Virus record (IMG/VR): IMGVR_UViG_3300046804_003780
Length of the DNA stretch: 64,000 nt
DNA from: a virus
Strand: one strand, 5' to 3'
The notes under the pieces were generated by a model that worked only from the letters and a program-made list of their open reading frames with translations, did no database searches and had not been told where the DNA came from. The position numbers and the translations under genes are program-made. Shown in pieces: positions 24,082 through 50,300 of this stretch (positions are counted from its first letter, which is position 1; each line of letters opens with the position of its first letter).

Positions 24082-24939
24082 TTAACCTAACAAATTTTCT
24101 AGCAATTGTTTGTTATTTTGTAATTCAATGGCAAGGTTAATAAAACCACTTTTAATTTTCACATTTGCGAATTGATTGTCTCCCATATATCCAAGTAAAT
24201 AAGTTGGATATATGTGATCAGATAGTGCAGCCAAAAATAAATCCATCAAAACTTGTATATTAATTTCGTGCTGTGAAACCTTAGGATCCGTTCTTGGCAT
24301 ATACATTATTGGTAAATTAAAGTCATAAAACTTATTTAAGGATTCATTAGTAATCAAGTGTTTAAAATTAAGTGTTTTTGCATATTCTTGCACTACGTGA
24401 TTATCTGTAAATAAAAATAAAGGTATAGATAAATTTAAAGAAGCAACATCATTCAATGCTTTTTTATAATCTGTGTTGTAATCTCTATGCCTTATCATAA
24501 TTGCATGATAGTTTCCCAATTGTTGTTTTTTAAATTTTATTTTTTCTGAAATTTCTTTATTCAAAACAAAATAGTGTAAAGCGTGTAAAGAGCAATAGCC
24601 TCCACCAAAAGACCTGTGTAGTAAAAACTTATGCGGTACATTTGATTGAAATGGAGCACAAACAGGATCTAAACAATCATTTGAACGTAACAGAAAATCC
24701 TGTGGAAATTCAGGATCAGAATAAAATTGTTCAATTTGTTGATTTGTTAAATCTAATTTAATATTTTTATACAAATTATTCACAGTAAAATACTTGGATA
24801 AATCTGTGTGTAAGTCGGAAAGTGTAGAATCGATTATTAAAGTTCTATCATATTTTTCAGCATAAAATATACATTTGCCTATTTGACAAAACATATCATT
24901 AATGCCGCCTTTTGGTTGACAAATTAAAAATTTTTCCAT
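24082..24939 (-). CDS. GT-B fucosyltransferase-like (NodZ/GT23-like) glycosyltransferase
   Basis: GGIND N-terminal loop, AIMIRHRD, LFLFTDN, DLFLAALSD. Confidence 0.6.
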   Translation of the reverse strand: MEKFLICQPKGGINDMFCQIGKCIFYAEKYDRTLIIDSTLSDLHTDLSKYFTVNNLYKNIKLDLTNQQIEQFYSDPEFPQDFLLRSNDCLDPVCAPFQSNVPHKFLLHRSFGGGYCSLHALHYFVLNKEISEKIKFKKQQLGNYHAIMIRHRDYNTDYKKALNDVASLNLSIPLFLFTDNHVVQEYAKTLNFKHLITNESLNKFYDFNLPIMYMPRTDPKVSQHEINIQVLMDLFLAALSDHIYPTYLLGYMGDNQFANVKIKSGFINLAIELQNNKQLLENLLG

Positions 24940-25000
24940 TAATTTAAATTTTCATATTTTTTAATTTGATTAAACAAATACATTACTGATAAATGTAAAT

Positions 25001-25022
25001 TAAAAGTGGCCCTAAGGCCACT
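25001..25022 (-). terminator. Terminator ending the tmRNA coding piece
   Basis: AGTGGCC-TTAG-GGCCACT followed by TTT on the minus strand. Confidence 0.75.
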
Positions 25023-25023
25023 A

Positions 25024-25342
25024 AACTATTTTTGGTTACAAGGCATAGTTGCCCCGAAGATCATGCTGCTAGAGCAAAAACCTCATCGTTAGCTGCGTTT
25101 GCAGTTATAGTTTTGCTTGATTGACAGTCATCGCCTACTGTGTTGTCCATATCCTTACTAATTGCCCTGTCGAAACCAAATTCAGGCCCATCATAAGAGG
25201 ATTATAGCAAATGCAATCACTATGGCTGCTAAACTATAAACAATTGTTTCGCCTACTTGATACATTCTAATCTCCTTATGGTGGACCTGCCCGGGGTCGA
25301 ACCGGGGTCCAGAACACCTTTCATTCAACTTCATACAACAAT
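25024..25342 (-). ncRNA. ssrA: Circularly permuted (two-piece) tmRNA: acceptor piece ~25342-25279, intervening segment 25278-25190, coding piece 25189-~25024; tag ANAANDEVFALAA at 25102-25061
   Basis: T-arm CCCGG-TTCGACC-CCGGG and CAGGTCC-A-CCA lie upstream of GGGCCTG (7-bp acceptor stem with G3:U70); GGTTTCGAC D-loop analogue; pk1; ATAACT-GCA resume context; tag ends in LAA-stop; downstream pseudoknot. Confidence 0.95.
25191..25265 (-). CDS. 24-aa hydrophobic peptide MYQVGETIVYSLAAIVIAFAIILL inside the tmRNA intervening segment
   Basis: TAAGGAGA RBS 5 nt before ATG; RBS plus ORF fill the segment from CCA to G1. Confidence 0.55.
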   Translation of the reverse strand: MYQVGETIVYSLAAIVIAFAIILL

Positions 25343-25470
25343 TCTTTAAGCTGTTGACAATATACTTGACATTGCCCACACCTATGATCCAGCTCAAAAA
25401 TACGCTGAATTAATTCCTCTTTTGTCTTAAAATCTGATTCTTTAATATTTCTACAAACACAAATAATCAT
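25321..25470 (-). CDS. 49-aa Bfd-like [2Fe-2S] ferredoxin (MIICVCRNIK...CGQC)
   Basis: Read by hand; N-terminal CxC and later CxxC as in bacterioferritin-associated ferredoxin; 3' end overlaps the tmRNA. Confidence 0.6.
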   Translation of the reverse strand: MIICVCRNIKESDFKTKEELIQRIFELDHRCGQCQVYCQQLKELLYEVE

Positions 25471-25471
25471 A

Positions 25472-25609
25472 TTAGTCAAAAAGATTTTCATTAGTATCTT
25501 TAGGCTTTATCCACTCATGATACACAAGTAGCATTGCTATTGAGATGCAACCCATAAGCATAACGCCCAAAAGAAACCCGATGATAAAATATAATTGCTC
25601 AGTTCCCAT
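25472..25609 (-). CDS. 45-aa single-TM protein (MGTEQLYFIIGFLLGV...)
   Basis: Read by hand; TAAATA at 25631-25636 upstream. Confidence 0.6.
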   Translation of the reverse strand: MGTEQLYFIIGFLLGVMLMGCISIAMLLVYHEWIKPKDTNENLFD

Positions 25610-25651
25610 TTTTTTATTATTCTAATCTAATATTTAGACTAAAACAATCAT

Positions 25652-27850
25652 TTAGGGTCTTATACTATTAAATTTTGTCTGTAACCATTCCCAATCATAA
25701 GTAAATTTAAGTTTATCAAAGTCACCATTTACAGATTCATAATATTCGACTGCATGTTTGGCTCCTTTAATAGCATACTCTGCAAAGTCACCATAAGCAG
25801 TATTTAGCCAAATAGTTAATCTATCTTTGCTTATTTTGTCGTTTAGTGTTTCCACATTGTATTTTAACTTAATAACTTCTCTAAAAGCAGTTCTCCAAGT
25901 ATCCCACTCACTAGTATTAAATACCCCAATACCTGAATTTATGTCGATCACAGCATGGGGACTATCTAATGTAAAGTCCAGTCCTTTACCTGTAGTGTTT
26001 AAAGTTAATCTTTTATTATTTGCAACTATTGCCATATGTCCGTATTCCAATCCATTTACAGGATTAGTGGCCCGAAATATGTAATGTCGTGCTGTACACA
26101 TACGATCAGGTTGCCAGCTAAAATCAAAATTAGGATTTACTCTGCATTTTCCGTTTATTAGAAAATACCACGGTGTTGATGCCATTTTTGCTGCTTCATG
26201 TTGACTAGCAACACGACCTTTAATATCTTTAAGTCCAATTATATTATTAGGTAAACCTTTAGCTAATGTTAAGAGATGTTCATAATTTTCTTCTGCCCCC
26301 TTTTCACCGTTACTCAAAAAAATTATGTCTAGCGGTTTGTTTTTATATCCTGCTGTGTGATATTTTATGTAAGGATAATCTTGTAATTTGTCATAAAGAT
26401 AAGGTATAGCTTCTTTGGGCACAATTGCATGAGTATTATCAATAATATGAATATTCGAATTAGAGTCTAGCTTAGGCATAAATTCTACATGATTTAATTC
26501 TCCTAATCCTAATTGAATGTAATCTGTTTCTGTTTTTGAATTTACAAGGGCATCAAATAAGCTATCCTCAACAGGAACTTCATCAAGCATCAATTTAACA
26601 ATATCTACATCCATAAATTTATAATTGGTTGCACCTTTTACTTTATAGTGTACTGTAGGCATATCTTTGCTAGAAGACCATTGATTTCCAAATACGTAAA
26701 TGTATGGTGGGTCGAAAGGATTAGGAACCCAACTATAATCAATAATTAATTTTGGTTTTAAAAGTCGCCATGCTCTGTTTTCTTTATCAGGTAATAATTT
26801 TGCCTTAATGTTATTAATATATTTTTTTTCTGTTGCTCCTTTTACTTTGTAAATTAGAGTGGGCATTACCTCAGCATCATACCACTGATTACCAAATACA
26901 TAGATATAGGGAGGTTCTGTTTCATCAGGATGCCAGCTATAGTCAAACTCAATATTATTTTTTAAAGGTCTAAAACATCTATTTTGCGGGTCCTGTAGTC
27001 TAGTAACTTTTTGAAAATTAACAAACTTTGTTCCTAACGGATTACCTTTTACAAACTTCGGTCCTCCTGTCTTTTGCCATTGAGTACCAAATTCATACTC
27101 CATTGGTGGTTCATGTGGATTAGGGCACCAACTATAATCAAAATTACTATCATCAATATTTTTTGGAATAATCCAGTTTTCTTTGGATGGTAGTAATGTT
27201 GCTTTTATAATATTCACATATTTTTTTTCTGTTGCCCCTTTTACTCTATATTGAAATGTAGGCATTACCTCAGCATCATACCACTGATTACCAAACACGT
27301 GAATATACGGAGGGTCATATGGATTAGGTCTCCAACTTTTATCAATATTATCAATAGAAGCATTGAATATTAATTGTTTCCAACATTTATCATCTAGATT
27401 AGGTAACAGTGTTGCTTTATAATTATTTACATATTTTTTTTCTGTGGCTCCTTTGACCCTATATTGAAATGTAGGCATTTCTTCAGCACCATACCATTGA
27501 TTACCAAATATGTAAATGTAGGGAGGTTCTGTTTCATCCGGATGCCAACTGAAATCTATAGATGCGTCGGGCACTAAAGGTCTCCAACCTCTATCATTTT
27601 CATTTGATAATTTTATTGCGTTTTGAAAACTATGATATTTTATTCCTTCATTTTCAGGTACTATAAAACGAGGTCCTCCCGTTTTTTGCCATTGTGTACC
27701 AAACTGATGAATATATGGTCTTTCGTAAACGAATGGACGCCACGTAAAATCGAACGTACTTGTATCTAAATTATCAGGTATTTCCCAATAACCTAATTCA
27801 TTAAGCTGTTTTCTTCTTTCTAAATCATTTAAGTCAGTAATTTGTAACAT
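25652..27850 (-). CDS. Six-repeat protein with a C-terminal glycosyltransferase-like domain
   Basis: Six ~68-aa W-x-P...FG(T/N)QW repeats; C-terminal DIIFLSNGE, NPVNGLEYG and WRTAFRE shared with 29268..30209. Confidence 0.8.
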   Translation of the reverse strand: MLQITDLNDLERRKQLNELGYWEIPDNLDTSTFDFTWRPFVYERPYIHQFGTQWQKTGGPRFIVPENEGIKYHSFQNAIKLSNENDRGWRPLVPDASIDFSWHPDETEPPYIYIFGNQWYGAEEMPTFQYRVKGATEKKYVNNYKATLLPNLDDKCWKQLIFNASIDNIDKSWRPNPYDPPYIHVFGNQWYDAEVMPTFQYRVKGATEKKYVNIIKATLLPSKENWIIPKNIDDSNFDYSWCPNPHEPPMEYEFGTQWQKTGGPKFVKGNPLGTKFVNFQKVTRLQDPQNRCFRPLKNNIEFDYSWHPDETEPPYIYVFGNQWYDAEVMPTLIYKVKGATEKKYINNIKAKLLPDKENRAWRLLKPKLIIDYSWVPNPFDPPYIYVFGNQWSSSKDMPTVHYKVKGATNYKFMDVDIVKLMLDEVPVEDSLFDALVNSKTETDYIQLGLGELNHVEFMPKLDSNSNIHIIDNTHAIVPKEAIPYLYDKLQDYPYIKYHTAGYKNKPLDIIFLSNGEKGAEENYEHLLTLAKGLPNNIIGLKDIKGRVASQHEAAKMASTPWYFLINGKCRVNPNFDFSWQPDRMCTARHYIFRATNPVNGLEYGHMAIVANNKRLTLNTTGKGLDFTLDSPHAVIDINSGIGVFNTSEWDTWRTAFREVIKLKYNVETLNDKISKDRLTIWLNTAYGDFAEYAIKGAKHAVEYYESVNGDFDKLKFTYDWEWLQTKFNSIRP
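26862..27295. repeat. Exact 35-bp direct repeat (26862-26896 and 27261-27295) within the protein repeats
   Basis: ggcattacctcagcatcataccactgattaccaaa occurs twice, 399 bp apart. Confidence 0.9.
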
Positions 27851-35391: not shown

Positions 35392-38300
35392 TTAGTCACT
35401 TTTTAAGAAATTTGCTGGTATAGTGTTGCTAATTTGCAGTGGATCACCATTAGCAGAATAATCATCACTATTCCAAATTTTGTTATAATAAAACGGATCT
35501 AGAATATCTTTTGTTGAAAAACTCAAAACATATGAATATTTGTCCTGTGTTGGGAGAATCGCAGTTCCTTCTGCTCCCCTGACAAAATTAGTTATAGTGT
35601 TATCTTCAATATTAATATTTTTAAATCTAATTTTTTCGCCGTTTATTATTATTGTATTACCAAATCGCAATACAAATTCTAAAGCATCTCCGTCTGTTAC
35701 ACCTGAGGTGAAAATTACCTGAGTTGTAGAATTTACTGTATTAAGATAATATGAGGTTTTAGCTAACTCAAGTCCTGTTACTAAATTATTTACAGTTAAC
35801 AAAACTATATCTACTATGTTGTAGTTTAAGTAGGAGTAAATCTTTTGCGTTGTTATGTCATAAGATGCATAAGAAACCGTTGATGTTATATCGACCAATT
35901 TAGTTACATCATCAACGTAGATTTTAGTATCAGTAGGATAAATTGGTCTAACTAACCAAGTGCGATTTTCAATATTGCTGTTAGCAATCACCATTTCGTT
36001 ATTTTTGTTTACTGTTAAAGTATACCAAAGTTCATTTGGAGTAGGAGAGGGCATATAACTAGTAACAATAATTGTATTGCCAAGTGCAATAGGAGACATT
36101 ATACTTAATCTATTATTTGGCTGATTTATACGCAAATTATTAGGTGTAACTCTAGTACCATTTATATGTACAAACAATCTATTTGTATCTATAATATCAA
36201 GTGTAGGTTGATTAATTGAAATTGTGTTTGTATATTTCCAAATAAAGCCGCCAGAACCTACTCCGTTAGAATAGAATGTTCCGTAAGTGTTACCTATTAC
36301 AGGTACTGAAAGATTAAAATCACTATAAAGCTCATATCTATAATATGTAACTGCATTCTCAACATATGTTGGCAAAACTCTTACATAAAAAATATTATTA
36401 TTAATTTCAGTAATATTTTGAACTCCATCTATTAATACTTGATCTTGATTTACGAAAAAAGCATTTGTAGCTGTTGTAACTACAACAGGTGTAGCAGGAG
36501 TATTTATATAATAAATTGGAGTTACTCTTATAGATGTTGACGTTTGCGTTACGAAAAATTGATTTTGAGTATCGTTAAATGAAGTTACACTAACTATTGT
36601 ATTAGCAGCAATTGATGGTATAACAGTTAATGTAGTTCCAACAATTGTGTAGTCAATAGTATTTCTTGCACGTATTCCATCAATTTCAACTACCGCATTG
36701 TTAGGATTGTTTCCTCCCATATTGTTAGTTAATGTAAAAGTTTTTGGTCCACTTACGTACTGAAAAACTTGAGTTTCAGGCATACAATATTGATATATTG
36801 TGTTTGCAGGGCCGTAAATTGCAAAACTAACATACTGAGTAGCTAAATTAATAATAGATGTAAAAACAATGGTAATTGCATTTGATTTATTTGGTTCTAT
36901 TTTATAATCAACATTGTTTATTTTTTTAACCCCATTAATATACACTACTGGAAATAAATATACTCCATCTTTATATGGATAATTTGTGTCTATGTAACTT
37001 ACATTTTTCTTTGCATCAAACTTAACAGGAACATTATCAGATGTACCTTTAACTTCTTGATTTCCGCCTCCTAAACTATAGACTTCAAAATAAATTTTTT
37101 CTGTAGGACTTAATGGTGAAGTTAATGTTACAACCTTAAAAACCCAATCTATTGATTGTATTTTAACTAAACTTGTAGGGGTAGGCACTTGATTAACAGT
37201 GTAAATGCGTGTTGCTCTATTATTAGTATTCGAAATTATATAAACTGCAATTTGTGTTGCGTATGGTGATAAATTAGCAAAACTAAATGCAGTAGAGTTA
37301 CCTAAATCAAATATTCCGCTATTTACATAAAATCCAAAATTTTCGTATACAGTAGGATCCCAAAGTGATCCAGGTGTAGTCTTTACTGTAAGCTGAAGAT
37401 TATCTGTTATCAATGCTGGTACCATTTCTTCTGGTCCATATCCTGATAAGAATGTTTCTCCTTTTATGTTATATTCAGGTTCATTAGCAGTTAGGAAAGA
37501 AATATTTTCCCAATCTATTACATTGCTACTACGTAAAATTGTTGAGTTTTCACCTACTGCAATTAAATAATTGCCATCAAATTCAATTTCATTTAAATTA
37601 TTTGAACTTATTTGTGAGGTTTGACTCCATGTTTCTCCGTCTGAGCTATAAAGTATGTAACCATTATTACAAATTACTATATAGGTGTTTAGAGCATAAA
37701 TGCCGTGATTTATTTGTTGATTAAACGATGGTCCTAATATGGTAGCTACATTCCAGTTGCTTGCGTTGGTTGACCAGTAAATTTTACCAAAATCACCTGC
37801 AGCTATAATTTTTGTATTTGAACCAAATACTGTGTTAAAATTTACATCAAATGTTTGATTAGTATTGGTCCAAGTTATGCCATCGTAACTTATTACGACT
37901 CTAGCTTGGTCAGCAAATACTGGTGAAGGAGTGTCTGGACCTTCTATAATAGATGTTCCATTTCCAACTGCGATAAATCCTTCGAAACTGGTTGCGTCAG
38001 CTCCTGGTATATATGCAACTGATTTTAAAACGTTTGGTAATCTACTGCCAAAACTATACCCTGTTCCCCAGCTTGTTGCATTAATACTACTCAAAACATT
38101 ATTACCAACAGCTACGTAATTATTATTGTAGTACACAACATCGTATAGTTCATCATTAGGAGTTTCTACAGATAGGGTATCAAACCCTGCAACATCAAAC
38201 GGAGCATCATCATAAACTGTGTATGAACCTACACTTACCCAGTTAAATCCATCATAGCTTATGAGCAGAGGAGCACTAGCATTCAATGCACTAATTACGT

Positions 38301-41300
38301 AAAAAGAACCTGAGTAAATTATTCTAGTCACATTAATAGGTGTATCACTTATTTTTTTAAATGTCCAGTTTCTACCATCAATACTATATAAAACAGTTGC
38401 ATTCGTAGCTGCATTACCAATTGCTACATATTTGGCCCCGTCATATACTATACTTTTTATATCAATTTCTTTTGGATAAAACGGCTGTCCTTGTAAAATT
38501 ACATCTAATTCAAAATCATCATTAAATTTATTACCTAAATTAGTACCATTAGGATATTCTAATCCTGTCATTAATAATGGTAAATGTTTACCAGGCATAT
38601 TGATAGTTGGTTGGTAATAAGCAATAATTCTGTCTAACGCATTTATAAATGGGTAATCACTTTGTAATAACTCCCATTTAGTAAAATCAAAAGTTGCGTC
38701 ACTATTTGCCACAATGCACTTATACAATTTATTATTATAAGTGACCAATGATGCTGCAGGAATAGTGAATGGTTCAGGATAAAAACCAATATCTCCTGCG
38801 GTAAATATGAATGGAGTAGCCCCTGTATTTTTTACAGGATTAATTAACGTTGCATCGTAAAATAATCGGCATTTTGTTGCACTTATTGGTATCGTATAAT
38901 ATTCATCAAATGCATTGGAACATATACCACTTAAACTATAAAAAACTATGGCTCCGGATAAAGCAAAAGTAACAGTAATTATTAAATCATTTGCCGGTGA
39001 AGAGCCTCCCAAAAGTGCTCCTGATATTGTTATAACGTCTCCGGTAGTGTAAATATTTCCAAAATCTTTTATGTCAATATCATACTCATTTGACACAGTT
39101 GTGCCATAGATTCTTGGGCTAGTAACCCAAATAATGGCACCACCAGAACCTGAATTATCATAGATATATGGAGTTGTAAGTCTGGCTACTTTATAGAAAT
39201 AAAGTTTGGTCTTATTAAGATATCCAGCTGCTAGACTAGTATTTGTGTAATTAAATGTTACAATGACATTATTTGTACCAGATTCTGTTGTTACTGCTGA
39301 TATTGGAACAGTGGCCCCTTGTAGGCTTGACAAGAATACAGGTTTAGCAACACCTTCAACAATAAATTGTGTTATTGATCCGGCTAAGGTTACGCTTACA
39401 ACAGTTATTGTACAACTATTTGTAGGAGCAGTTCCTCCCAATAAATTACCTGGTATCGTAATTACATTTCCTGCTTGATAATTTAATCCTCCACTATTTA
39501 AAATTGCTGTGTACACACCAACGTTATTGGCAGTTGAATAAAAATCAGGTGGCTCGTCTTGGTTACCATAAATCCAAGCATATACATCAAATAAAGCTCC
39601 TGATCCTCCCGCAGGACTTACGTTTCCTGAAACAGATGGGAAAGGTATTGCAGTAGCAAGCTTACTTGCATAGCTTGCATCATTTCCTATGCTATTATAA
39701 GTTGAGATGTAAAATTGATTTGGCTCCCAAACAGTAACCTCAGGTCTATAACTAGTTCTGTCAAATTTTAATACAGGAGTAATTTGTCTTGTAGGAGCAT
39801 TACTTGATATTGGAGCCAATCTAGCACCTAATGTTAACACATGATTATTACTTGGAGTTCTTCCTTGGACTAAAATTAATCTATGTGTATCAGTTAAAGC
39901 ATTAATTTTTGAAATGTAAAATGCAATAGCAGTAGGTCTATTTTGATTTGCAATAGTAACTGCAGGTTTTTTAGTTCCATATTCAATTAATCTTATATAA
40001 TAATATTGATTATCTATTAATCCCAAAATAGTTGATAAATTGCTACCTTTACTGTATTTTAATAAATCTCCTGTTTCAAACAATTTAAATGGAACGTTTA
40101 TAGTATAATTTGTATAGTTTATATCAGAGGTATTAAATTTATGTTCAATTGACGGTTCAATAATTAACTCAGGTAATACCTTATATCCTTCACCTGAATT
40201 TAAAACAGTAACAGCAACAACTTCTCCTGCTGACATTTGGGCCTTAAGGGACGCTTGTACTTTAGGAGCAGGAAAAACTTCTGTATTTACGTAACTTACA
40301 ATATTTGGTGGTTCTGTGTATCCTCTACCACCATATATAACACTTACGGCAGGCAAATCTATAAAGATTTTTGTTCCTGGAAAATGATCTACAACTTCAG
40401 TATCTAATGCACCTCTTGTTAATCCAGATAATATTCCCAAATCTCTGTCAACTGTGTTATAACCTATATATTCATTATCAATTTTAATCACGCCTACTGT
40501 TGGATATCCAAATGCATTATCAACAACAATTATTTTTGTTGCGACTGGGACATATTCACGCAGTAAACCAATAAAATAATTTTCTTTTCCTTGCAGTTTT
40601 ACTCCGTAGTTATTAAACCATTGATTATACTGTGGTTCTTGCCATATTTTATCAGAAGAATTATATTGAGATTCTAGCAACGTGTCACTAAAAACTAGTT
40701 CAGGAGTAATAAAAGAATCAAGTGTTGCATTCCATTGAGCAGGTAAATCAAAATCAGAAATATCTCCGTCATATAGATTTGTCTTTGTATATTTTAAACT
40801 AAATTCTTTAAGTTTTACTCTATATGGTTTAACCTCATTGATATATCCATAAAGAAAATCTTCATTGTCACGTTGGAAATTTTTAGTTTGCTCTAATTCT
40901 CTTAAAGTGTGTTCTACATCTAAAAATGAGGTTTTGTTTAACCAAGGTAAATAGTTACCAAATTCTTCTGTTTCGGTTATAATATATTGAAATAGTAAAA
41001 TTAGTCCTTGATTTCTATAAATTAATAGGTCATCAGTGAAAACTTCTTCATTTAATCCACGTATGATATTGTAGGTTTCTACTGACGGGAAACTGTCATA
41101 AGGTGTGCTATCGTAAAAACTGTCCCCAAATCCTATTCCGTTAATGCTATAATCATAGAGAGATTTTTTGATTGCAATTGTCCCTAGCTCTAGTCCGATT
41201 CGGTTCCAATTATTATTTTGATATAAATAAACTTCACGCTTACCGTTACTGTTAGCATTTACTCCAACTATCATATTCTCAAAAGCATTTAACTTTTCTA

Positions 41301-44300
41301 AATCGTAATATTTTGGAACGTCAATATCAGTTCTTGTTGAATCTGAATAACCTTCTGCCCACCAGTTTACATATTCCCAATAATTGTTTGTGTCAAAATC
41401 ATCTCCGGAAAGTGTGAAAAACGCAGGAGCATTTAACCCTGTTGTAGCCACTCCTCCCAATGTAAGGAAGCTAGGATTTTTCAACTCAGTTATAGGAAAC
41501 TTAATCATTACATTATTTGCAAACTGCACATAATTTTCCAAAGCCCGTAATCTGTTATAGAAAAAACTTTGGCTTGGTCGCAAATTAGTGCCAGTTTGTA
41601 ATAATCTAGGTAAAAATGGGTTAGGAACAGATTGTCCTAACAAATCAACTCCTGAAAAACTATCTAATAATTTTTGATATAAACCATTAGGAGTGACTAG
41701 GTTATTATACAATGTGGGGAGTCCAGGTAGAAAATCTTCTGCATACCCATCACGTATCAATTTAAATTCTGTGTGAGCAACATCATTCCCACTATCTGTT
41801 TTATATCCTAAATGCAAACTTGTAAAAGTAGCACTAATATATTCAAACACATTATACAAAGCATACACATTTTGTTTTAATGGTGCTAAAAAAGCTATAC
41901 CAGAAGTAATAGGATTAGAAATGTAGGATGAAACTATATTATCCGCAAGTGTTTTTGCATTTGATAAAACGGTCCCAATATTTTTAACCCAATAATAATA
42001 TCTTGTTACTATAGTACCACTTTCAACAATTTCGTTTAATGTTGTGTAGGCATCAATATCGTAAACAGTACCAACACCAGTATAATCTATAGGTAAAACG
42101 TCACTTTCTATCCACGTGTAGACTGATACTGTGCTGCCTGGAAACACTGTTCCCCAGTATCTACTATTATATAAAATGTTATTTTGATGATAATCAATAA
42201 ATTTGGTTTCAGATGTGTCGAACCATAATTTTCCAACGTATTCTTGTCCCCAAACAGATTTCCTTACATTGTTATTATTATATCCTGCAGGGTCTACGCT
42301 TGATATGTAATCTAAGTTTTGTGCGACAACACCTAATAATTTTCCTTGTAAAGGATCAATATAATCTAAACTTACAATGTTTAAATTATTTAAATTGTTA
42401 TATATTGAAACTCCATGTAGTTTGTTTATGTCTACAGTATTGGTGGGGTTTCTATAAATATACCAATTAGGTTTTCCAGAAGTATTTCTAAAAATATTAA
42501 CTCTACCATTTTGACTACCACTTAGATATGTGGGAGATCCAATTATAATGTTGTAATTATTAAACGAAATATTAGTTCCATAATACGGGGCACTGCCTAA
42601 AGTTGTGGTTGTATCGTTGACTAATTGACCAAGAACAAATTTTCCAATATTGTCTATACTTTCGTTGTACGCACCTAAATAGTCATATACATATGCTGAT
42701 CCTGCATCTGCAACAACATCAGTAAACACTGTAAAGTTATTATCAAAAATAGTGTCATTGCTATAATCTTCGTCATCAGTAAAATCAAATGTCGTTTGAG
42801 TATATCTATTACTTGTAGGAGCAGACACAACAAAGGAATTTAATTCATTAAATTTTATTGATGTTCCGTATTGAGTATTATTTTGTATGTTAGGATCGTG
42901 TAAAGTTTGTGTTTTTTTATAGAAAGTTATACCTAAACTTGCAAAATTTGCTTCTGCGAATACTGTTAAATTAAGTTTATCTTCCAAAACATTTAAACTT
43001 TGATTGATTAATTGTATTACAAGTTTATTATCATTTGTTTTTGATGCTATTACATTTGGAATATTTGCCTCGTTTATTGCAATAACCGCATTATTAATTC
43101 CAGTTGCAGGTAAAGTCACCGCAAATCCATTAATTAAAATGTTAATTTGACTTGATAAATTGTAAACACTAGAACCAGTGATTATGCCAAACTTTTTACC
43201 TGCATTAGTATATCTATAGACTGTACCTTCTGTTCCTGTTGCATCTACGATATCAAATGGAGAACCTACTAATAATTCATTACCTAAGTTATTATTACTT
43301 AATCCCTTACCATAAAGTATACCTACTCTTGGATTGGTAACTTCGCTGTGTCCTATGAGTGTTTGACTTAAAATAAAATCATTACCTTCAACCAATATTA
43401 AATCACCTGCTTTCAACACAATTTGTTCTTTAATTGTTAAAATATTTGTTGATAGTGTATAATTAGAACTTGATAAAATATTACCATTTAAAAATACACT
43501 TATAGAATTTGTAGGTGTCCATGCTAAGGCAAAACTAGTAGCAATTGTTTGAATGGGGGTAAATCTTGACTCAAATATTTGTTTAACTCTATTGTAAATG
43601 TATACAACTCCTGTATCCGTAACAGCATTAAAGTCTTGATTAGGCGCACTTATGAAAAGTTGTGTTCCATTGTAATTTGTAGAAATGTTTGATCCAAAAT
43701 TTGTTGCTGACCCTGCGCCGGTAATTGTTGCAACATTTGTATAGTCATAATAGGCTCTGTAAACTGTAGTGCCTATATTAGCTCCTGCAAAGAAATAACC
43801 TTCTATGGTAAAGGTTGTTAAATTACTACCTGCGTCAAATTCTCCTGTGATGATTTTGTAGGTTGTTGATCCATTTACATTAGAGAAACTAACCATTTGT
43901 CCTTCTAATAATAATGATCTTCTATCTCCTGAAACTCTAAATTGATTACCGTTAACAGATATAGCAGAGGTTAATGGATATCCAATACTTGTAAAAGTTA
44001 AATTTGAATTTTTTCTATACACAAATACTTGTCTTGTAGAACCTCTACCTACAAAAAAGTAATTACAATCGTCACTCATCACTACTTTATCTGCAGCGCC
44101 ACTTCCGCTTATATTAAATGAATTTTGTAGGGCAACAGCTTCAATTTTTTCAGTCGAAACTAGTTCATAAATGTAAACTATGCTGGTTGTTGCAGATTTT
44201 AATATGGCTAAAAAGTTTTGTTTTTTATCCATACTTGAACCAAACCCAGTTGGGCTTGATGGTATTGTAATTGTTTCGTCTAAATTCCAAAAGTTAATGT

Positions 44301-47300
44301 TTGATTCATATTTGTATCTATAAACATTTCCAGTGCCTGAATCTCCTAAGAAATAACCTAATTTAGCATCAAAAGCAACACTACTTCCAAAAGATGAAGT
44401 TGGCACTGGCTTGTTAAAACTTGATGATAATTGATAGTTGATACCTTTTCTATAAACTGCCCATGTGCCATTAATGTTTTCATCCACCCATACTGTGCTT
44501 AGGACAAATTCAGTATCAATGAGATTTAAATTACTAATATCTTTTGGTGATGAAACTCTTTGATTTTGTAGTTTTGCAACTATTCCAGTTGACTCAATGT
44601 TTGATATAGATAATGGCAAACTTAAATCTATAACAACTGAGTTTGCATCACTAATTCTTACTATAATATAGAAACCATCTACAAAGCTTGAATAATTCAA
44701 AATCATTATCACAGTATTGACTGCTAAATTATGCGGTTTATCAAAAAATACTGTGCAAGTATCATTTAAATTATTAACTACATTTATTATAGCAACTGGA
44801 ATGTTTGCGTTAAGAGATGTTGTGGCGTAAATTCTCCAATCACCTTTGAAATCTGCTATCCAAATATATTCGTTTTTATAAATGTCGTAAATTGAAACTT
44901 CATTTTGATTTAAATTTGCAACTTTAAATGAATATGTTTTAATATCTTCAAAATTCACATATCCAGCCGATGGTAATTGATTAAATGTACCAGAAGGTAA
45001 AAGTGGAAGTATATTGATATTATTTGGAACACGTCCGTAATTACTTAAAGCATAAATTGGTATTTCTTGCATTGAACCTGGTTCATTAACATCTTTTATG
45101 ATACTAACAATAGCAGGATTTCCATTTAATTTTTGTTGATCCAGTTTAAATTCAATAAAATTTTGATCTAATACACCACCATAATTTCCTATATTGATTG
45201 CCCAATTTTCATAAGTTGTATAATTTATACCACCAGTTTGTAACGTAATGTTTTGAATTGCAGAAGTAGCTTGTTTACTTCCTTTTTCGACAATCATTGT
45301 CTTATAAAGATTTACTTGTGATATGTCATCCAAATTTGCAGCAGCTAAATAATCTCTTGGTCTATATCCAATTAAAGAAAAAGATAATAAATCAGCGTCA
45401 TTTTCTAAGTTTGCTTGGTACGAATTATAATATAAAGTACTCTCATATGCCCTGCTACTTGCATTAGGTAATAATCCTTTTTGTATTAAATCATAGTCTA
45501 CTTTTGTCCAAAGATTTTGTTGAAAGGAGGCTGCTGGCTGAATAATTTCATTTGAAGCATAATAATTATTTTTATATTTTACTATTACGCCTTTTGTATA
45601 TTTGGTATTTGCCTGCCAATCTATAACATTATCCTGATTTAAAATAAATCCTTTTGTATCTACCGTGCCGTCCCAAGTTGCAGTTTTTGCTCCTTTTAAC
45701 AACATACGATATTGTCTTAAGCCAGTATTTGGATCATAAATTAAATCATTAAACAATGTTACATTGTCAAAAACAATTGCGTGTTCGATATTACTTAAAT
45801 TAGCATTAAAGTATGCAATAGTATCATCAACCTTTATAGGAATCGCAGAAAATTCAACTCCATTTCTAATAATTGACATATCCTTAATTTGTATTGGAAT
45901 TAAATTTTGATTTAATACATAATTTTGAGCTTGTAGTGTTAGAGGTTGAACAATAGCATTTTCTTTATTAATTACAATTTTTTTAGCCAAAGGATTTATA
46001 TTTAATATTGAACCTGTTTCCCAACCTGCTTGAATCCAAGCTAAAACCTCTTGAATCATTTGATTCCAATTAAGAATGAGGTTATTTTCAACCTGATTAA
46101 ATTCGAGGCCTTGTGAACTTAAGTAATTACCATAAGAATTAATAAATTCAGCAAGTGCCTGAGGTGTAGAAAACTCGGTGCTATATGGAACTATAACAAC
46201 TTTACCGCTTGAATTTTTTGAAATTCTAACTGACAATGAGCCAGATGTTATGGTTTCATACTTTCCATTTACCAATGGAGCAAATGTTTTAAAATAAATT
46301 TTATTTTGACTATTACCATATACTTGATAACCAGTATCAGTTTTTTGAATTATAATTGAACTATAAACAATCGTGTCAAAAGGTTGATTTTCATGTAGTA
46401 GGACTTGATAACTTTCGTCTGGAATTAATAAACTATTATTTCTGCTCGTTGGGGAACCTTTATCAACATAAAATTTTAACAACTCTTTGTCGCTAAATCC
46501 TGCCAATCGATAAACCAATCTTACATCTAAATTGTTAAGATATTCTGTTAAAATATCATATCCTGAATTTCCTGTACTCTGAACATAGTCCACTATCCAA
46601 TTAATGTAACTATGCTGTGCTGTTCCGCTCCCGTATAATACAGATCCTGTAGTTTGAAATCTAAACTTGTTATTGACTAGATACTGATCAAATTCATCAT
46701 TAAATTTATAGGTGTCTAAATTTTCTCCCAACGCATAAAATTTTGCAGGTTTACATAACGCTAAAATTTTTACCAAGTCGTAAGGCCAAGAACTGCTCTT
46801 TAAATAACTAAATTCAGCAGGACCCCAATCACCAACTTTCCATTGTGTTTGGAACGTCAAGTTGTCATAGTTACCTATAACAGAATTTAATGGATCAACT
46901 AAATTCCCCAAATCGTCCACTGGTAAAACTTTTAAGAGTCCTGGTCTTTTTCTTGATTCAATTATAATTGGATTTCCGTCATTATAATCATAACCATTTT
47001 CCATATCAGTCCATAATACTAAGTTATTTTTAGTATACGGCGGTAATCCATAATAACTATCCCACCATTTAGGCTTATTGGTGTACCCAATCATTTCCCA
47101 AGGAGTTAAGTTTGGAGTTACTGTGTCAAAAAACCAGTTATATAATCCTTTCCAATTGCCCCTTTTTACTAAAGTATTATCTAATCTATTTGTTGCTTGG
47201 TAATAGTTATATGTGTATGCATCTGTTGCACTGTAATATTGTGATTTATAATCAATTCTATTTTGACCTACCCAATTTAAAAAGGACATTGAGTACAATT

Positions 47301-50300
47301 GTAAAATTTCATCATAGTTATAGTCAGTATTTCTAAATTGTCCAGGTAGAACCTCATCACTTGAAATTGGAATTTTAGAACTTACTTTTAAATTGTTATA
47401 AATTCGGCACTCAAATTCAAATATTACTTGGTCACGATAATCTGTTAGATATCCATTTTTATATTCACCGTATAATGTTGTTAACGAACCATCGTGACCT
47501 TTTATAAACCAAGTAGGATTTACATAAGAAGTATCATAAACAACTTCAGGTATTGTTGCTGGATAAAATCCTAATTTTGTAGGAGTATTTGGTACATAAC
47601 TACCATATGTTTGATTGTATTCATTAACAACAATTACGTCTCCAATTACCAAATCAGTATACACGTTGACTAAGGGTTGATCCGAACTAACTATATAATC
47701 TACGTCCCTAATTAATTGTCGCTGAACTAACACTCCATTTACATTTCTTAAAAGATAAAGTAATACAGAGTTATAATTTGCTGAAGTAAAATCATATATT
47801 TTGCTTAAAGAAAATTGCGATTGATTTACATCGGCATTGAAAGAATACCTATTGGTTATATATGCTCCTTTACTAGGTAACATATCTGACCAAAAGAATG
47901 AATTGCTTTGTGTTTTGTATGAAGTTATTTCATTGATAGCGTTATCTAATATAGTTGACGCTATTTGATAGCTTTCATATGGTGTTTTAGATACCACATC
48001 TATGAGTAGACTTTTATATTTAATATATTCAACTGAATTAAAGTTAAGAGAATCAATTAAATTAAAGTTTGCATTTTTTAAGAATGCCCCAGTTAATGAT
48101 AAAGGAGCACTATTTTGAATTATTTTTGTTCCATATCTTACTAGGTTTGGTAAATCTCTGTAATTATTTGCACCAAATATTTGACCAACAATACGTTTAC
48201 TGTTTGTACAAATACTCAAATAATGATTTTTTATGTCTCCTAAATTAGGACTCACTATTTGCGCATTAAAGATATTGTTTTCTAAGTTTGTTGGTATCGT
48301 AAAATACCCCGTAGTGCTTACCTTATCACTATAAATTAATATTTGTATAGGCGTTTCTAATATTGGAGTAGAATTTAAAGTTATTGTCGTTGTATTTCCT
48401 TGCACTGCAAAAGTAAATTCAGTATCAAATAAAATATTATCTCTAACATAAACTTGCACTACCGGCCATGCAGTAGAATCTGTGGATTTAGCTGGTACAT
48501 CGCAAATAAAAATTGGACTGCCCTTTGCTGGGTCATAATTAAAATTAAATGCTTGATATTGAATACTATTTGAAATTGCAGTTTGCCAGCCTAGTTCTCT
48601 CACATAATCGGTTTTAGACTGATAATTATATATGTATCCTGTATTAACATCCTGTGTTGTTTGAATTCCATTTAACACATAATTAAATTTATCTGTGTTA
48701 TATGAAACATTAAATTGAATATCACCTATGTTGTTTACTGAACTATATTTTAAAGGAAATCCTAATATAGGATCATTGTTCCCAGTACCTGTCGCATATT
48801 GAAATAGTGAAGTTCCAATAAAACTACTACTGTTGTAATAATCTGTGTCCCCAAAGCTTAATCCATTTGAATCAAAAATATCAAACAGCGGTGGTTGATT
48901 TACTGTTGTTTTTAACTGCCCTTGTATCCAAGTTGATCCATTAAACCAATATGTATATCCTTTTCTATCTTCACCTAACAATACTACGGTTTGATCAAAA
49001 CTTTCAACATCTCCGTTAGCTATTTTTGTAAGTGTTATTACAGGTGGTGATTGAGTTATTACTACATTGCCGGTTGCATTATCTAATTGAATAAAATTAG
49101 ACAAATTTGGATCTGTGCTTAAGCGCAGTGATGTAGAATTTGGTATATCATATACATAGTATTTTGTAAATGCTGTCAAATTGCCTATGTTTTGATTTAA
49201 AGAAACTAAACTTCCTACAACAAAACTTGTAGAATCTGTTACAGTAAGTCTGTCTGTAGAGGCGCTAGTAGAACTTATTACTGTCGATGTCTGTGTAGCA
49301 ACCGACGTGGAAATATAATTTACTCTATAAATTTTGTTTCTAACATTTACATCTGTGTCTGCACTGAATATAACCTTACAACCATCAAACAATCCAAAAC
49401 TTAAGCCGTCTGGATAATACTGTAATTGACTGGCTACTTGTGTAAATGCGTCGGTCGCAGTTATATCAAAATAATCAACCGGAGGTTTTGCTTGAATGCC
49501 TAAATTGAATAATTTTAAGTTAGGGTAAAATTCAATAATTGGTCTTTTAGCTCTAGCCTCATTACTATTAATAACATTAAGTAAATTTTTACTGTTAGTA
49601 TGTTTAATAGTTTCTTGTATGACCTGTGAGTGGAACCATCTATTACCTCTAGTCCACGCATTTAAATTTTGGGCTGCTCTGTTAATAGTGATATAATCTT
49701 GTGTTATAGGTGATTCAACTATATCAGAATATGGTGCAATATCATATGGTGCAGCATCATATGGATTGTAAACACTTTGTGAATACGATTCTGGTGTTAC
49801 TAACGTAGAGGCTGAAATTAATTTAATACCTGTTCCAACTCCTTCTACATAATATTGATCCGTTTTATATTTCTCAGGTACAACGTCACCAGAAAAACTT
49901 ATTTTTAATCCATTAGTAAATTTAACGTTGTTTGGTGAGATGTAAGTTAGTTTGTTTAAAATATCAGTTTCAACATTTATATAATTGGCTTCATTACTAT
50001 CTACTATTTTAATAACGCCAATCTTTTTAAGATTTTCACTGTCCTGATAATACAATGTATCTAAGGGTGCAGTGACTTCAGGTATTATTTGTATTTCTCC
50101 TGTTTGTAATCTTACAAATTTTTTAAAAATATATTGATTTCCAATTAATACCGTAATATTTGTATTTGTTGGTATTACATTTAATGGGGTTAAATTAATT
50201 ATTGGATCACCTGGCTCATCTGTTTCTTCATAGGTTATTTTGAAGAAATACTGACTTACATTTACAAAAGAAGCTGAATCGAACCCTACAGGGTTAGTGC

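Follow-up and report, generated by a model that had tools for sequence, protein, structure and literature searches.

Permuted genes for transfer-messenger RNA (tmRNA) are known from alpha- and betaproteobacteria and from cyanobacteria and are represented in Rfam by the families RF04321 and RF01850. The present analysis concerns one such gene, and the 89-nucleotide (nt) spacer between its two pieces, on a 64,000-nt stretch of viral DNA (IMG/VR record IMGVR_UViG_3300046804_003780; the whole stretch is referred to as the window). The window is a contig of an uncultured T4-like myovirus with a G+C content of 32-36%. Its spacer holds a 24-codon open reading frame (ORF), preceded by a Shine-Dalgarno (SD) sequence, and is probably a gene in its own right. 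Two-piece tmRNAs have been published from phages, among them the OM43 phage Melnitz and pelagimyophages (PMC9004378, PMC11915505). A tmRNA database paper of 2025 regards the intervening sequence as no part of the mature RNA and mentions only two kinds of content for such segments, a tRNA-Ala gene and a repeat element (PMC11915505). An earlier reading of the window made from its letters alone (the sequence-only reading) proposed a dual-function RNA or mini-mRNA and knew of no described example; a literature search likewise found no account of a protein gene in the spacer of a permuted tmRNA, although most subscription journals lay outside that search and absence is not proof.

The nearest known kinds are genes nested in removed segments of stable RNAs, on the one hand, and dual-function RNAs on the other. 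Some tmRNA genes are interrupted by group I introns that carry genes for LAGLIDADG homing endonucleases (PMC11915505). There, as here, the segment removed from a tmRNA precursor harbours a protein gene; however, the intron is a self-splicing element of the T-loop encoding its own mobility enzyme, whereas the segment studied here is the processing spacer of a permuted gene. In the related phages this spacer appears to accommodate varied host-directed or metabolic genes as well as tiny membrane peptides, with the SD and the stop codon placed within the processing helix itself. A second parallel is provided by the intervening sequences of 23S rRNA in Coxiella burnetii and Leptospira, which contain an S23p ORF that, in Coxiella, is seemingly not made in vivo (PMC4990558). 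In both cases an ORF lies in a stem-closed spacer excised from the precursor of a stable RNA, and the element looks mobile. The present locus differs in having a strong AAGGAG 6 nt before an ATG, in the signs of purifying selection, in the nature of the host RNA and in its variable cargo. The peptide of the window, at 24 residues and with no family match in PHROGs (it was not scanned against Pfam), gives no indication of belonging to the S23p family.

Dual-function RNAs are exemplified by SgrS/SgrT and RNAIII/hld; mRNAs of the hok type are inhibited by folding back, and the MS2 maturation gene is translated on nascent RNA only. The RNA of the window would resemble these in combining coding and non-coding roles and in sequestering its SD by long-range pairing, with initiation probably limited to unfolded or nascent molecules. 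It would differ from them in having a tmRNA for its non-coding part and in losing the coding part during maturation; moreover, no antisense partner was found. The resemblance would thus be one of mechanism, by analogy.

The permuted tmRNA gene and its spacer

ARAGORN reports a single tmRNA gene in the window, labelled 'Permuted', at 24970-25371 of the minus strand, with the tag ANAANDEVFALAA. The Rfam models tmRNA_permuted (RF04321) and beta_tmRNA (RF01850) match positions 25340-25061 with 129 bits and 25391-25001 with 122.7 bits, the respective cut-offs being 47 and 84. The 3' tRNA-like half, with its CCA, lies upstream of the 5' half, and the acceptor stem read from the sequence (GGGCCUG:CAGGUCC) includes the G3:U70 pair. 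Covariance-model score, order of the pieces, G3:U70 and tag frame concur in identifying a permuted tmRNA gene, whose transcript appears to end at the terminator hairpin at 25022-25005. The gene shares its order, its G3:U70 pair, a tag ending in ALAA, the terminator hairpin and scores above both Rfam cut-offs with the known permuted tmRNAs, from which it differs by the SD-led and apparently selected gene in its spacer. In a sample of approximately 34 bacterial permuted tmRNAs (30 alphaproteobacterial plus a handful of betaproteobacterial ones), the spacers measure 4-55 nt and none contains an SD-led ORF. Among the sequences sampled, the gene-in-spacer form is confined to phage contigs.

The spacer begins immediately after the CCA with the SD region, in which AAGGAG stands 6 nt before the ATG, a working distance for a ribosome-binding site. 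SD-like motifs precede 12 of the 28 ORFs of the window phage. The encoded peptide, MYQVGETIVYSLAAIVIAFAIILL, has a polar N-terminus, followed by a uniformly hydrophobic stretch (residues 8-24; mean Kyte-Doolittle value about 2.95); it contains one acidic and no basic residue. Its last residues are partly dictated by RNA pairing, the 3' strand of the stem described below encoding Ile-Ile-Leu-Leu. The product is most likely a single-helix membrane protein, presumably inserted into the membrane. A search of viral contigs with a degenerate pattern of the N-terminal MYQVGET yielded one true relative, at locus L023 (sampled loci carry L numbers), and 12 unrelated matches. Most small spacer ORFs of the relatives match nothing in Pfam or PHROGs, the ones scanned hitting NifU_N, PGDYG or nothing. 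The anatomy just described, from the spacer limits (25278-25190) through the SD, the 5-nt linker, the ATG and the 24-codon ORF to a TGA ending 1 nt before G1, agrees to the base with that proposed in the sequence-only reading, which had further claimed that the spacer is itself a gene.

Selection on the spacer ORFs, cargo and exchange

To obtain frequencies independent of spacer content, viral contigs were scanned with a motif of the 5' tRNA-like domain; this spacer-blind sample comprises 81 permuted tmRNAs with 74 unique spacers. (A separate pattern scan anchored on the SD is biased towards coding spacers and served as a source of sequences only.) An ATG-initiated ORF fills the spacer in 11 of the 52 unique spacers of at least 60 nt, as compared with 2.8 in shuffled sequences. 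When an SD-like motif is required in addition to the ATG and the filling ORF, the count is 8 of 52, whereas 1000 shuffles average 0.18 and reach 2 at most, a 40-fold enrichment. Counts restricted to ATG are underestimates, since further spacers start with TTG. For example, the 83-nt spacers of L029, L032, L036, L039, L043, L059 and L077 contain AAAGGAGAUAUGA followed by UUG, from which, rather than from an out-of-frame AUG, they read (M)KPYEVIVITLLTILILVHVFF, a peptide homologous to that of L027.

Further indication of a coding function comes from the substitution patterns. The cassette of the window occurs in four variants (window, L023/L406, L408 and L413), three of them recovered by viral scans and a metagenome scan for the tag region. 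Taken together, these three depart from the window by six synonymous third-position changes (codons 4, 5, 10, 13, 15 and 20), two conservative replacements (I8L and I21V) and three changes in the linker between SD and ATG, while the SD, the ATG, the stop codon and the stem are unchanged. With a quarter of changes expected to be synonymous, the 6 synonymous among 9 coding-nucleotide changes correspond to p of about 0.01 by a simple binomial test. Sister cassettes share the 83-89-nt architecture. In the MND family ('MNDxL...FALVLL'; 12 unique sequences), column entropies summed over the three codon positions amount to 9.9, 4.1 and 20.3, and the ratio of nonsynonymous to synonymous change (pN/pS) in frame is 0.20 at a pS of 0.54, the other five frames being worse or closed by stops. 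Coding on the opposite strand was considered as a source of this periodicity and rejected: the best reverse frame has a pN/pS of 0.39, against 0.20 forward, and lacks both SD and ATG. Ratios of 0.18 and 0.04 (the latter at a pS of 0.97) were obtained for the MDTGY family and for the MPVDMYYY, or soluble 'MPVDMYYYTESEWNRLGCGPLPPER', family. Placement of the SD at a working distance and purifying selection, two marks of a small gene, both appear to be present. Among the cultured phages of INPHARED no match to the window tmRNA was found, and a search with the MND-type tmRNA returned short tRNA-like matches only, with no cultured relative.

The same slot contains recognisable proteins in other phages. 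In L082 (1363-1790) a complete IscU of 128 amino acids (aa) fills the spacer of a permuted tmRNA (Pfam NifU_N, E = 3.3e-55, profile positions 1-124 of 127; phrog_8429, 1.8e-40). It is framed by CCA followed by UAAGGAGA on one side and by UCUUUAUGAU (also written AUCUCUUUAUGAU) followed by GGG on the other; its SD and last codons form the closing stem, and the geometry of SD and stop is that of the window. The spacer of L189 encodes a PGDYG-family protein (27.8 bits against a cut-off of 27; phrog_419, 1e-11). Since IscU is encoded by a stand-alone gene in the cultured Kyanoviridae phage C48C1, the spacer slot seems able to take normal phage genes. Another class of spacer ORFs (L028:156-338, minus strand; L066; L031; L416) runs past G1 without meeting a stop in frame, for example MPVDMYYYTESEWNRLGCGPLPPER... 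(pN/pS 0.04) and, in L416, MFENWNWIYIWGILVIV...; the frame reads ...SLYD up to the boundary and continues as GP... into the 5' tRNA-like domain. Lacking a stop before G1, these frames imply either that translation must unfold the tmRNA or that the message cut by RNase P, being stopless, would itself become a substrate for trans-translation.

Comparison of tmRNA backbones revealed a feature that the sequence-only reading had not foreseen, namely that the spacer behaves as an exchangeable cassette, to judge from the alignments. Between the window and L023 the spacers are identical at 86 of 89 positions (96.6%), while the acceptor and coding pieces are 73% and 71% identical. The converse applies to the syntenic locus L014, whose acceptor and coding pieces are 91% and 89% identical to those of the window and whose spacer is unrelated (41%). 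The cassette is equally conserved (96.6%) in L023/L406 and L408, and occurs also in L413, although the tmRNA backbones differ. Because synonymous sites of the cassette are conserved as well, recent transfer, rather than selection, would account for this identity. When the window is aligned with L023, identity is lost within about 9 bases of the two spacer ends, inside GGUCCACCA and UGAUGGGC. A metagenome scan gave 15 loci sharing the 25-nt tag region of the window, with at least 10 different spacers among them. In this set, window-type cassettes reside in backbones 76-87% identical; the acceptor pieces of L405 and L414 match that of the window at 98.4% of positions, but their spacers, 56 and 125 nt long, are non-coding and unrelated to its spacer. 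The simplest route of exchange would be recombination in the conserved flanks. Such cassette-like exchange may explain why spacers are hypervariable and suggests a new kind of slot for accessory genes of phages. L001, the closest syntenic relative as judged from neighbouring genes, has yet another non-coding spacer. The tmRNA of this locus (L001:8400-8720) shares the tag with the window, and its spacer is likewise closed by a stem. It diverges in the T-loop and in the 5' domain (GGUUCGA and UGGUUUCGAC are missing), is not called by ARAGORN, and may be a decaying or variant tmRNA.

Could the ORF be fortuitous? The spacer would in that case be a structured processing element, AAGGAG would be stem sequence and a U-rich loop would happen to read as hydrophobic up to a structural UGA. 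Indeed, non-coding spacers too have the stem, begin with (A/U)AAG and end in UGAU; a 24-codon open frame is not rare in AT-rich sequence, and shuffled spacers do yield filling ATG ORFs in about 2.8 of 52 cases. Chance does not, however, readily produce the combination of SD, ATG and filling ORF (8 against 0.18), nor the concentration of substitutions in third positions in the window and sister cassettes, nor an IscU in the same slot, nor a cassette that stays intact after transfer between backbones. Taken together, the comparative data disfavour a fortuitous ORF, which we regard as very improbable. The same substitution patterns, along with the IscU and PGDYG proteins in relatives' slots, lend weight to the earlier claim that the spacer is a gene; the comparison with related spacers proposed at the time gave SD, ATG and stop retained in the four variants, with change biased towards synonymous sites. 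The probable interpretation, then, is that the spacer ORF is a real and selected gene for a tiny membrane peptide, carried on an exchangeable cassette that reuses an RNA structure. It is because coding-type substitution is seen in its own and in sister cassettes, and because recognisable proteins occupy the same slot, that the spacer is considered a gene.

Several observations weigh against this interpretation. The family of the window consists of four variants only, and its coding signal is modest (p about 0.01). The window peptide shows weak homology to the MND family, with 6 of 24 residues identical, and the stem dictates part of this identity. The hydrophobic stretch, at about 17 residues, would make a short membrane span, and no basic residue accompanies it. 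Non-coding hairpins make up the majority of phage spacers in this tmRNA type, so that the tmRNA evidently does not need a gene there. Folding of the RNA is predicted to pair the SD of the window, which may make translation inefficient. Finally, a consensus scan of both strands from 24900 to 25700 found no sigma-70-type promoter adjoining the tmRNA gene. If the interpretation holds, a segment of two-piece tmRNAs that has been treated as throw-away would serve here as a messenger, and ORFs of 22-26 codons inside an RNA gene would make up a hidden class of phage small proteins. ORFs of this size are, to our knowledge, passed over by gene callers such as Prodigal. The locus would accordingly be of interest for RNA biology, for the study of small proteins and for phage genomics.

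The closing stem and access to the Shine-Dalgarno sequence

The two ends of the spacer extend the acceptor stem: between ACCATAAGGAGATTA (25282-25268) and TAATCCTCTTATGAT (25204-25190), 13 of 15 positions are paired, with one G-U pair among them and with C74.A and A.C as the two mismatches. When the acceptor stem and spacer (108 nt) were folded with RNAfold, exactly the predicted helix was obtained (-36.2 kcal/mol; z-score -4.5; none of 200 shuffles as stable). The extended stem, with the stop codon opposite CCA, had been noted in the sequence-only reading; covariation now extends it well beyond the window. Statistics were compiled from the 69 unique spacers of at least 25 nt in the spacer-blind viral scan, the majority of which (about 50) are non-coding hairpins of 25-90 nt starting with (A/U)AAG. 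The spacer ends in TGAT, that is, UGAU facing ACCA, in 49 of the 69, and in TAAT in 9. Of the ten positions that follow ACCA:UGAU, all except the first are paired in 84-93% of the sequences. Each stem position shows 3-6 types of pair, in coding and non-coding spacers alike, indicating abundant compensatory change. The closing helix and the UGA or UAA before G1 are accordingly general features of phage permuted tmRNA precursors of this type.

The presence of the covarying stem in non-coding spacers implies that the SD and the stop codon were recruited from a pre-existing structure. The stem is thus ancestral: only a few substitutions separate the SD of the window from the original beginning of the stem, and the stop codon was available ready-made. 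The sequence-only reading had cautioned that the SD-like sequence could simply be stem sequence. This holds good insofar as the SD is apparently built on the ancestral stem; the ORF nevertheless appears to be real. Two further positions stand out. The C74.A mismatch is retained in 55 of 61 spacers without a filling ORF and in all 8 coding ones, which suggests a processing requirement, perhaps that C74 be left free for RNase P, rather than a coding constraint. U at position -1 is retained in 56 of the 61 spacers without a filling ORF; U(-1) is the leader base preferred by bacterial RNase P. The continuous helix of about 22 bp would in principle be long enough to serve as a substrate for RNase III.

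Accessibility of the SD was estimated as the mean probability of its being unpaired in partition-function folds of 29 coding spacers, in the precursor, in the excised spacer and in a nascent form missing the last 18 nt. The medians are 0.21, 0.24 and 0.67, and the corresponding values for the window are 0.22, 0.23 and 0.82. Release of the SD by excision was thus considered and discarded, the SD being paired to the same extent afterwards as before. These values do not favour the proposal of the sequence-only reading that the excised spacer acts as a free mini-mRNA.

Another possibility raised by the locked SD is a membrane-damaging peptide akin to type I toxins or holins, which would be kept in check by the sequestered SD until its timed release depolarises or permeabilises the host membrane. 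The size (24 residues, as against 19-50 for type I toxins) and hydrophobicity of the peptide are suitable, and the pairing of 5' and 3' ends over the SD, supported by the fold, is reminiscent of the fold-back inhibition of hok-type mRNAs. On the other hand, a consensus scan of both strands from 24900 to 25700, a weak test, disclosed neither an antisense promoter nor an antitoxin RNA; the peptide lacks both basic residues and a charged tail, its SD is not freed by excision, and the slot accepts soluble, harmless cargo such as IscU. We consider a membrane-damaging function quite unlikely. A small membrane protein acting on a membrane target is favoured, a toxin-like role being possible by analogy in view of size and the locked SD, the two points that speak for it.

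The arrangement of the SD and stop codon suggests how translation of a small membrane protein might be coupled to tmRNA maturation. In the proposed scheme, the purine-rich 5' strand, (A/U)AAG..., would have become the SD AAGGAG, with the UGA of UGAU serving as stop, in a precursor helix made of ACCA:UGAU (including the conserved C74.A and U(-1)) and 10-11 covarying pairs. The ORF would be transcribed together with the tmRNA, and ribosomes would load on the nascent precursor, during a window of about 70 nt before the 3' strand is made; closure of the helix would then lock the SD. As the UGA ends 1 nt before G1, a terminating ribosome must cover the acceptor 5' strand (G1-G7), so that the tRNA-like domain could fold, and RNase P cut at G1, only after this ribosome has left. 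On any one molecule, translation and tRNA-like folding or RNase P cleavage would be mutually exclusive, and a ribosome on the last codons would keep the SD free for the next one. RNase P and 3' trimming to CCA would eventually set free both pieces of the tmRNA along with the used spacer, while the peptide would insert in the host inner membrane and act on a target there. The timing of translation and its coupling to maturation are inferred from the geometry and the thermodynamic folds; a competition between translation and maturation, suggested by the sequence-only reading, is plausible in that the geometry is compatible with it. If correct, the building of SD and stop codon into a processing helix would represent a compact natural design for co-transcriptional, structure-gated translation.

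It seems conceivable that the ORF acts in cis instead, much as a leader peptide does, the passage of ribosomes timing tmRNA folding and RNase P cleavage or setting the yield. The peptide itself would then be irrelevant, and the supply of tmRNA would be tied to translation capacity. Such a device would fit the constant position of the SD in the 5' strand and of the stop in UGAU 1 nt before G1, whatever the cargo; it would fit the diversity of that cargo, from unrelated 22-aa peptides to IscU, and the class without a stop (L028, L066 and L416), which forces translation into the tRNA-like domain. Yet it does not explain the purifying selection on amino acids seen in every family tested (pN/pS 0.04-0.20). 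Moreover, IscU and PGDYG are ordinary proteins, the former standing alone in C48C1, and most relatives manage with a non-coding spacer. A purely cis-acting role is, in our judgement, unlikely.

Returning to the spacer ORF as a selected gene, one may tentatively go further, on evidence that makes the extension possible but less than probable. Phage permuted tmRNAs might hold a hot-swappable expression slot, in which varied genes are moved by homologous exchange at the acceptor-stem/CCA and UGAU/G1 flanks, and where the SD in the stem and the stop at G1 form a ribosome-gated switch that delivers a burst of cargo from nascent precursors only. A slot of this kind may link phage manipulation of ribosome rescue with small membrane effectors or with metabolic cargo such as IscU.

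Feature coordinates and neighbouring genes

Coordinates of the permuted tmRNA gene, its spacer and the ORF within it, in window positions.
Feature	Position	Strand	Basis
Permuted (two-piece) tmRNA gene: acceptor piece, spacer, coding piece	24970..25371	-	ARAGORN, Rfam
Acceptor piece: T-arm, acceptor 3' strand, A73, CCA	25279..25340	-	Rfam alignment, ARAGORN 3' tRNA domain
Acceptor 3' strand CAGGTCC	25289-25283	-	sequence
A73	25282	-	sequence
Encoded CCA	25281-25279	-	sequence
Extended acceptor stem, 5' strand ACCAUAAGGAGAUUA	25268..25282	-	fold; covariation across 69 unique phage spacers
Intervening segment, 89 nt (predicted to be removed on maturation; here a putative gene cassette)	25190..25278	-	sequence
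SD region TAAGGAGA (also rendered UAAGGAGA), at the same time 5' strand of the closing stem	25271..25278	-	sequence
Linker TTAGA (5 nt) from SD to ATG, after TAAGGAGA	between 25271 and 25265	-	sequence
ORF, 24 codons + TGA, encoding MYQVGETIVYSLAAIVIAFAIILL	25191..25265	-	ORF list
ATG	25265-25263	-	sequence
Extended stem, 3' strand UAAUCCUCUUAUGAU: last four sense codons, stop, U(-1)	25190..25204	-	fold
TGA, ending 1 nt before G1	25193-25191, then T25190, G1 at 25189	-	sequence
5' tRNA-like domain of the coding piece	25162..25189	-	ARAGORN (gene positions 183-210), Rfam alignment
G1; acceptor 5' strand GGGCCUG	25189; 25189-25183	-	sequence
Tag reading frame ANAANDEVFALAA + stop, after the resume codon; ends in degradation signal	25061..25102	-	ARAGORN
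Intrinsic terminator hairpin, 7 bp (5 G-C), then U-rich tail	25005..25022	-	terminator scan; matches 3' hairpin of beta_tmRNA model

Proteins encoded elsewhere in the window match PHROG families of baseplate wedge, baseplate hub and virion proteins. Adjoining the baseplate genes is a single ORF of 5284 aa (35392-51246, minus strand), presumably a giant fibre or structural protein. Closer to the tmRNA, a 56-aa ORF (25321-25491, minus strand) extends over the 5' leader into the beginning of the acceptor piece and is 71% identical in L119. Its CxC...CxxC pattern (MKIFLTNMIICVCRN...HRCGQCQ) is reminiscent of BFD-like [2Fe-2S] domains; a comparison with Pfam gave nothing significant. Just upstream of the tmRNA lies an ORF for a 45-aa, single-helix membrane protein (25472-25609, minus strand). 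This protein is 57-76% identical in L001, L014, L023, L111 and L119, from which it appears that small membrane proteins cluster at the locus.

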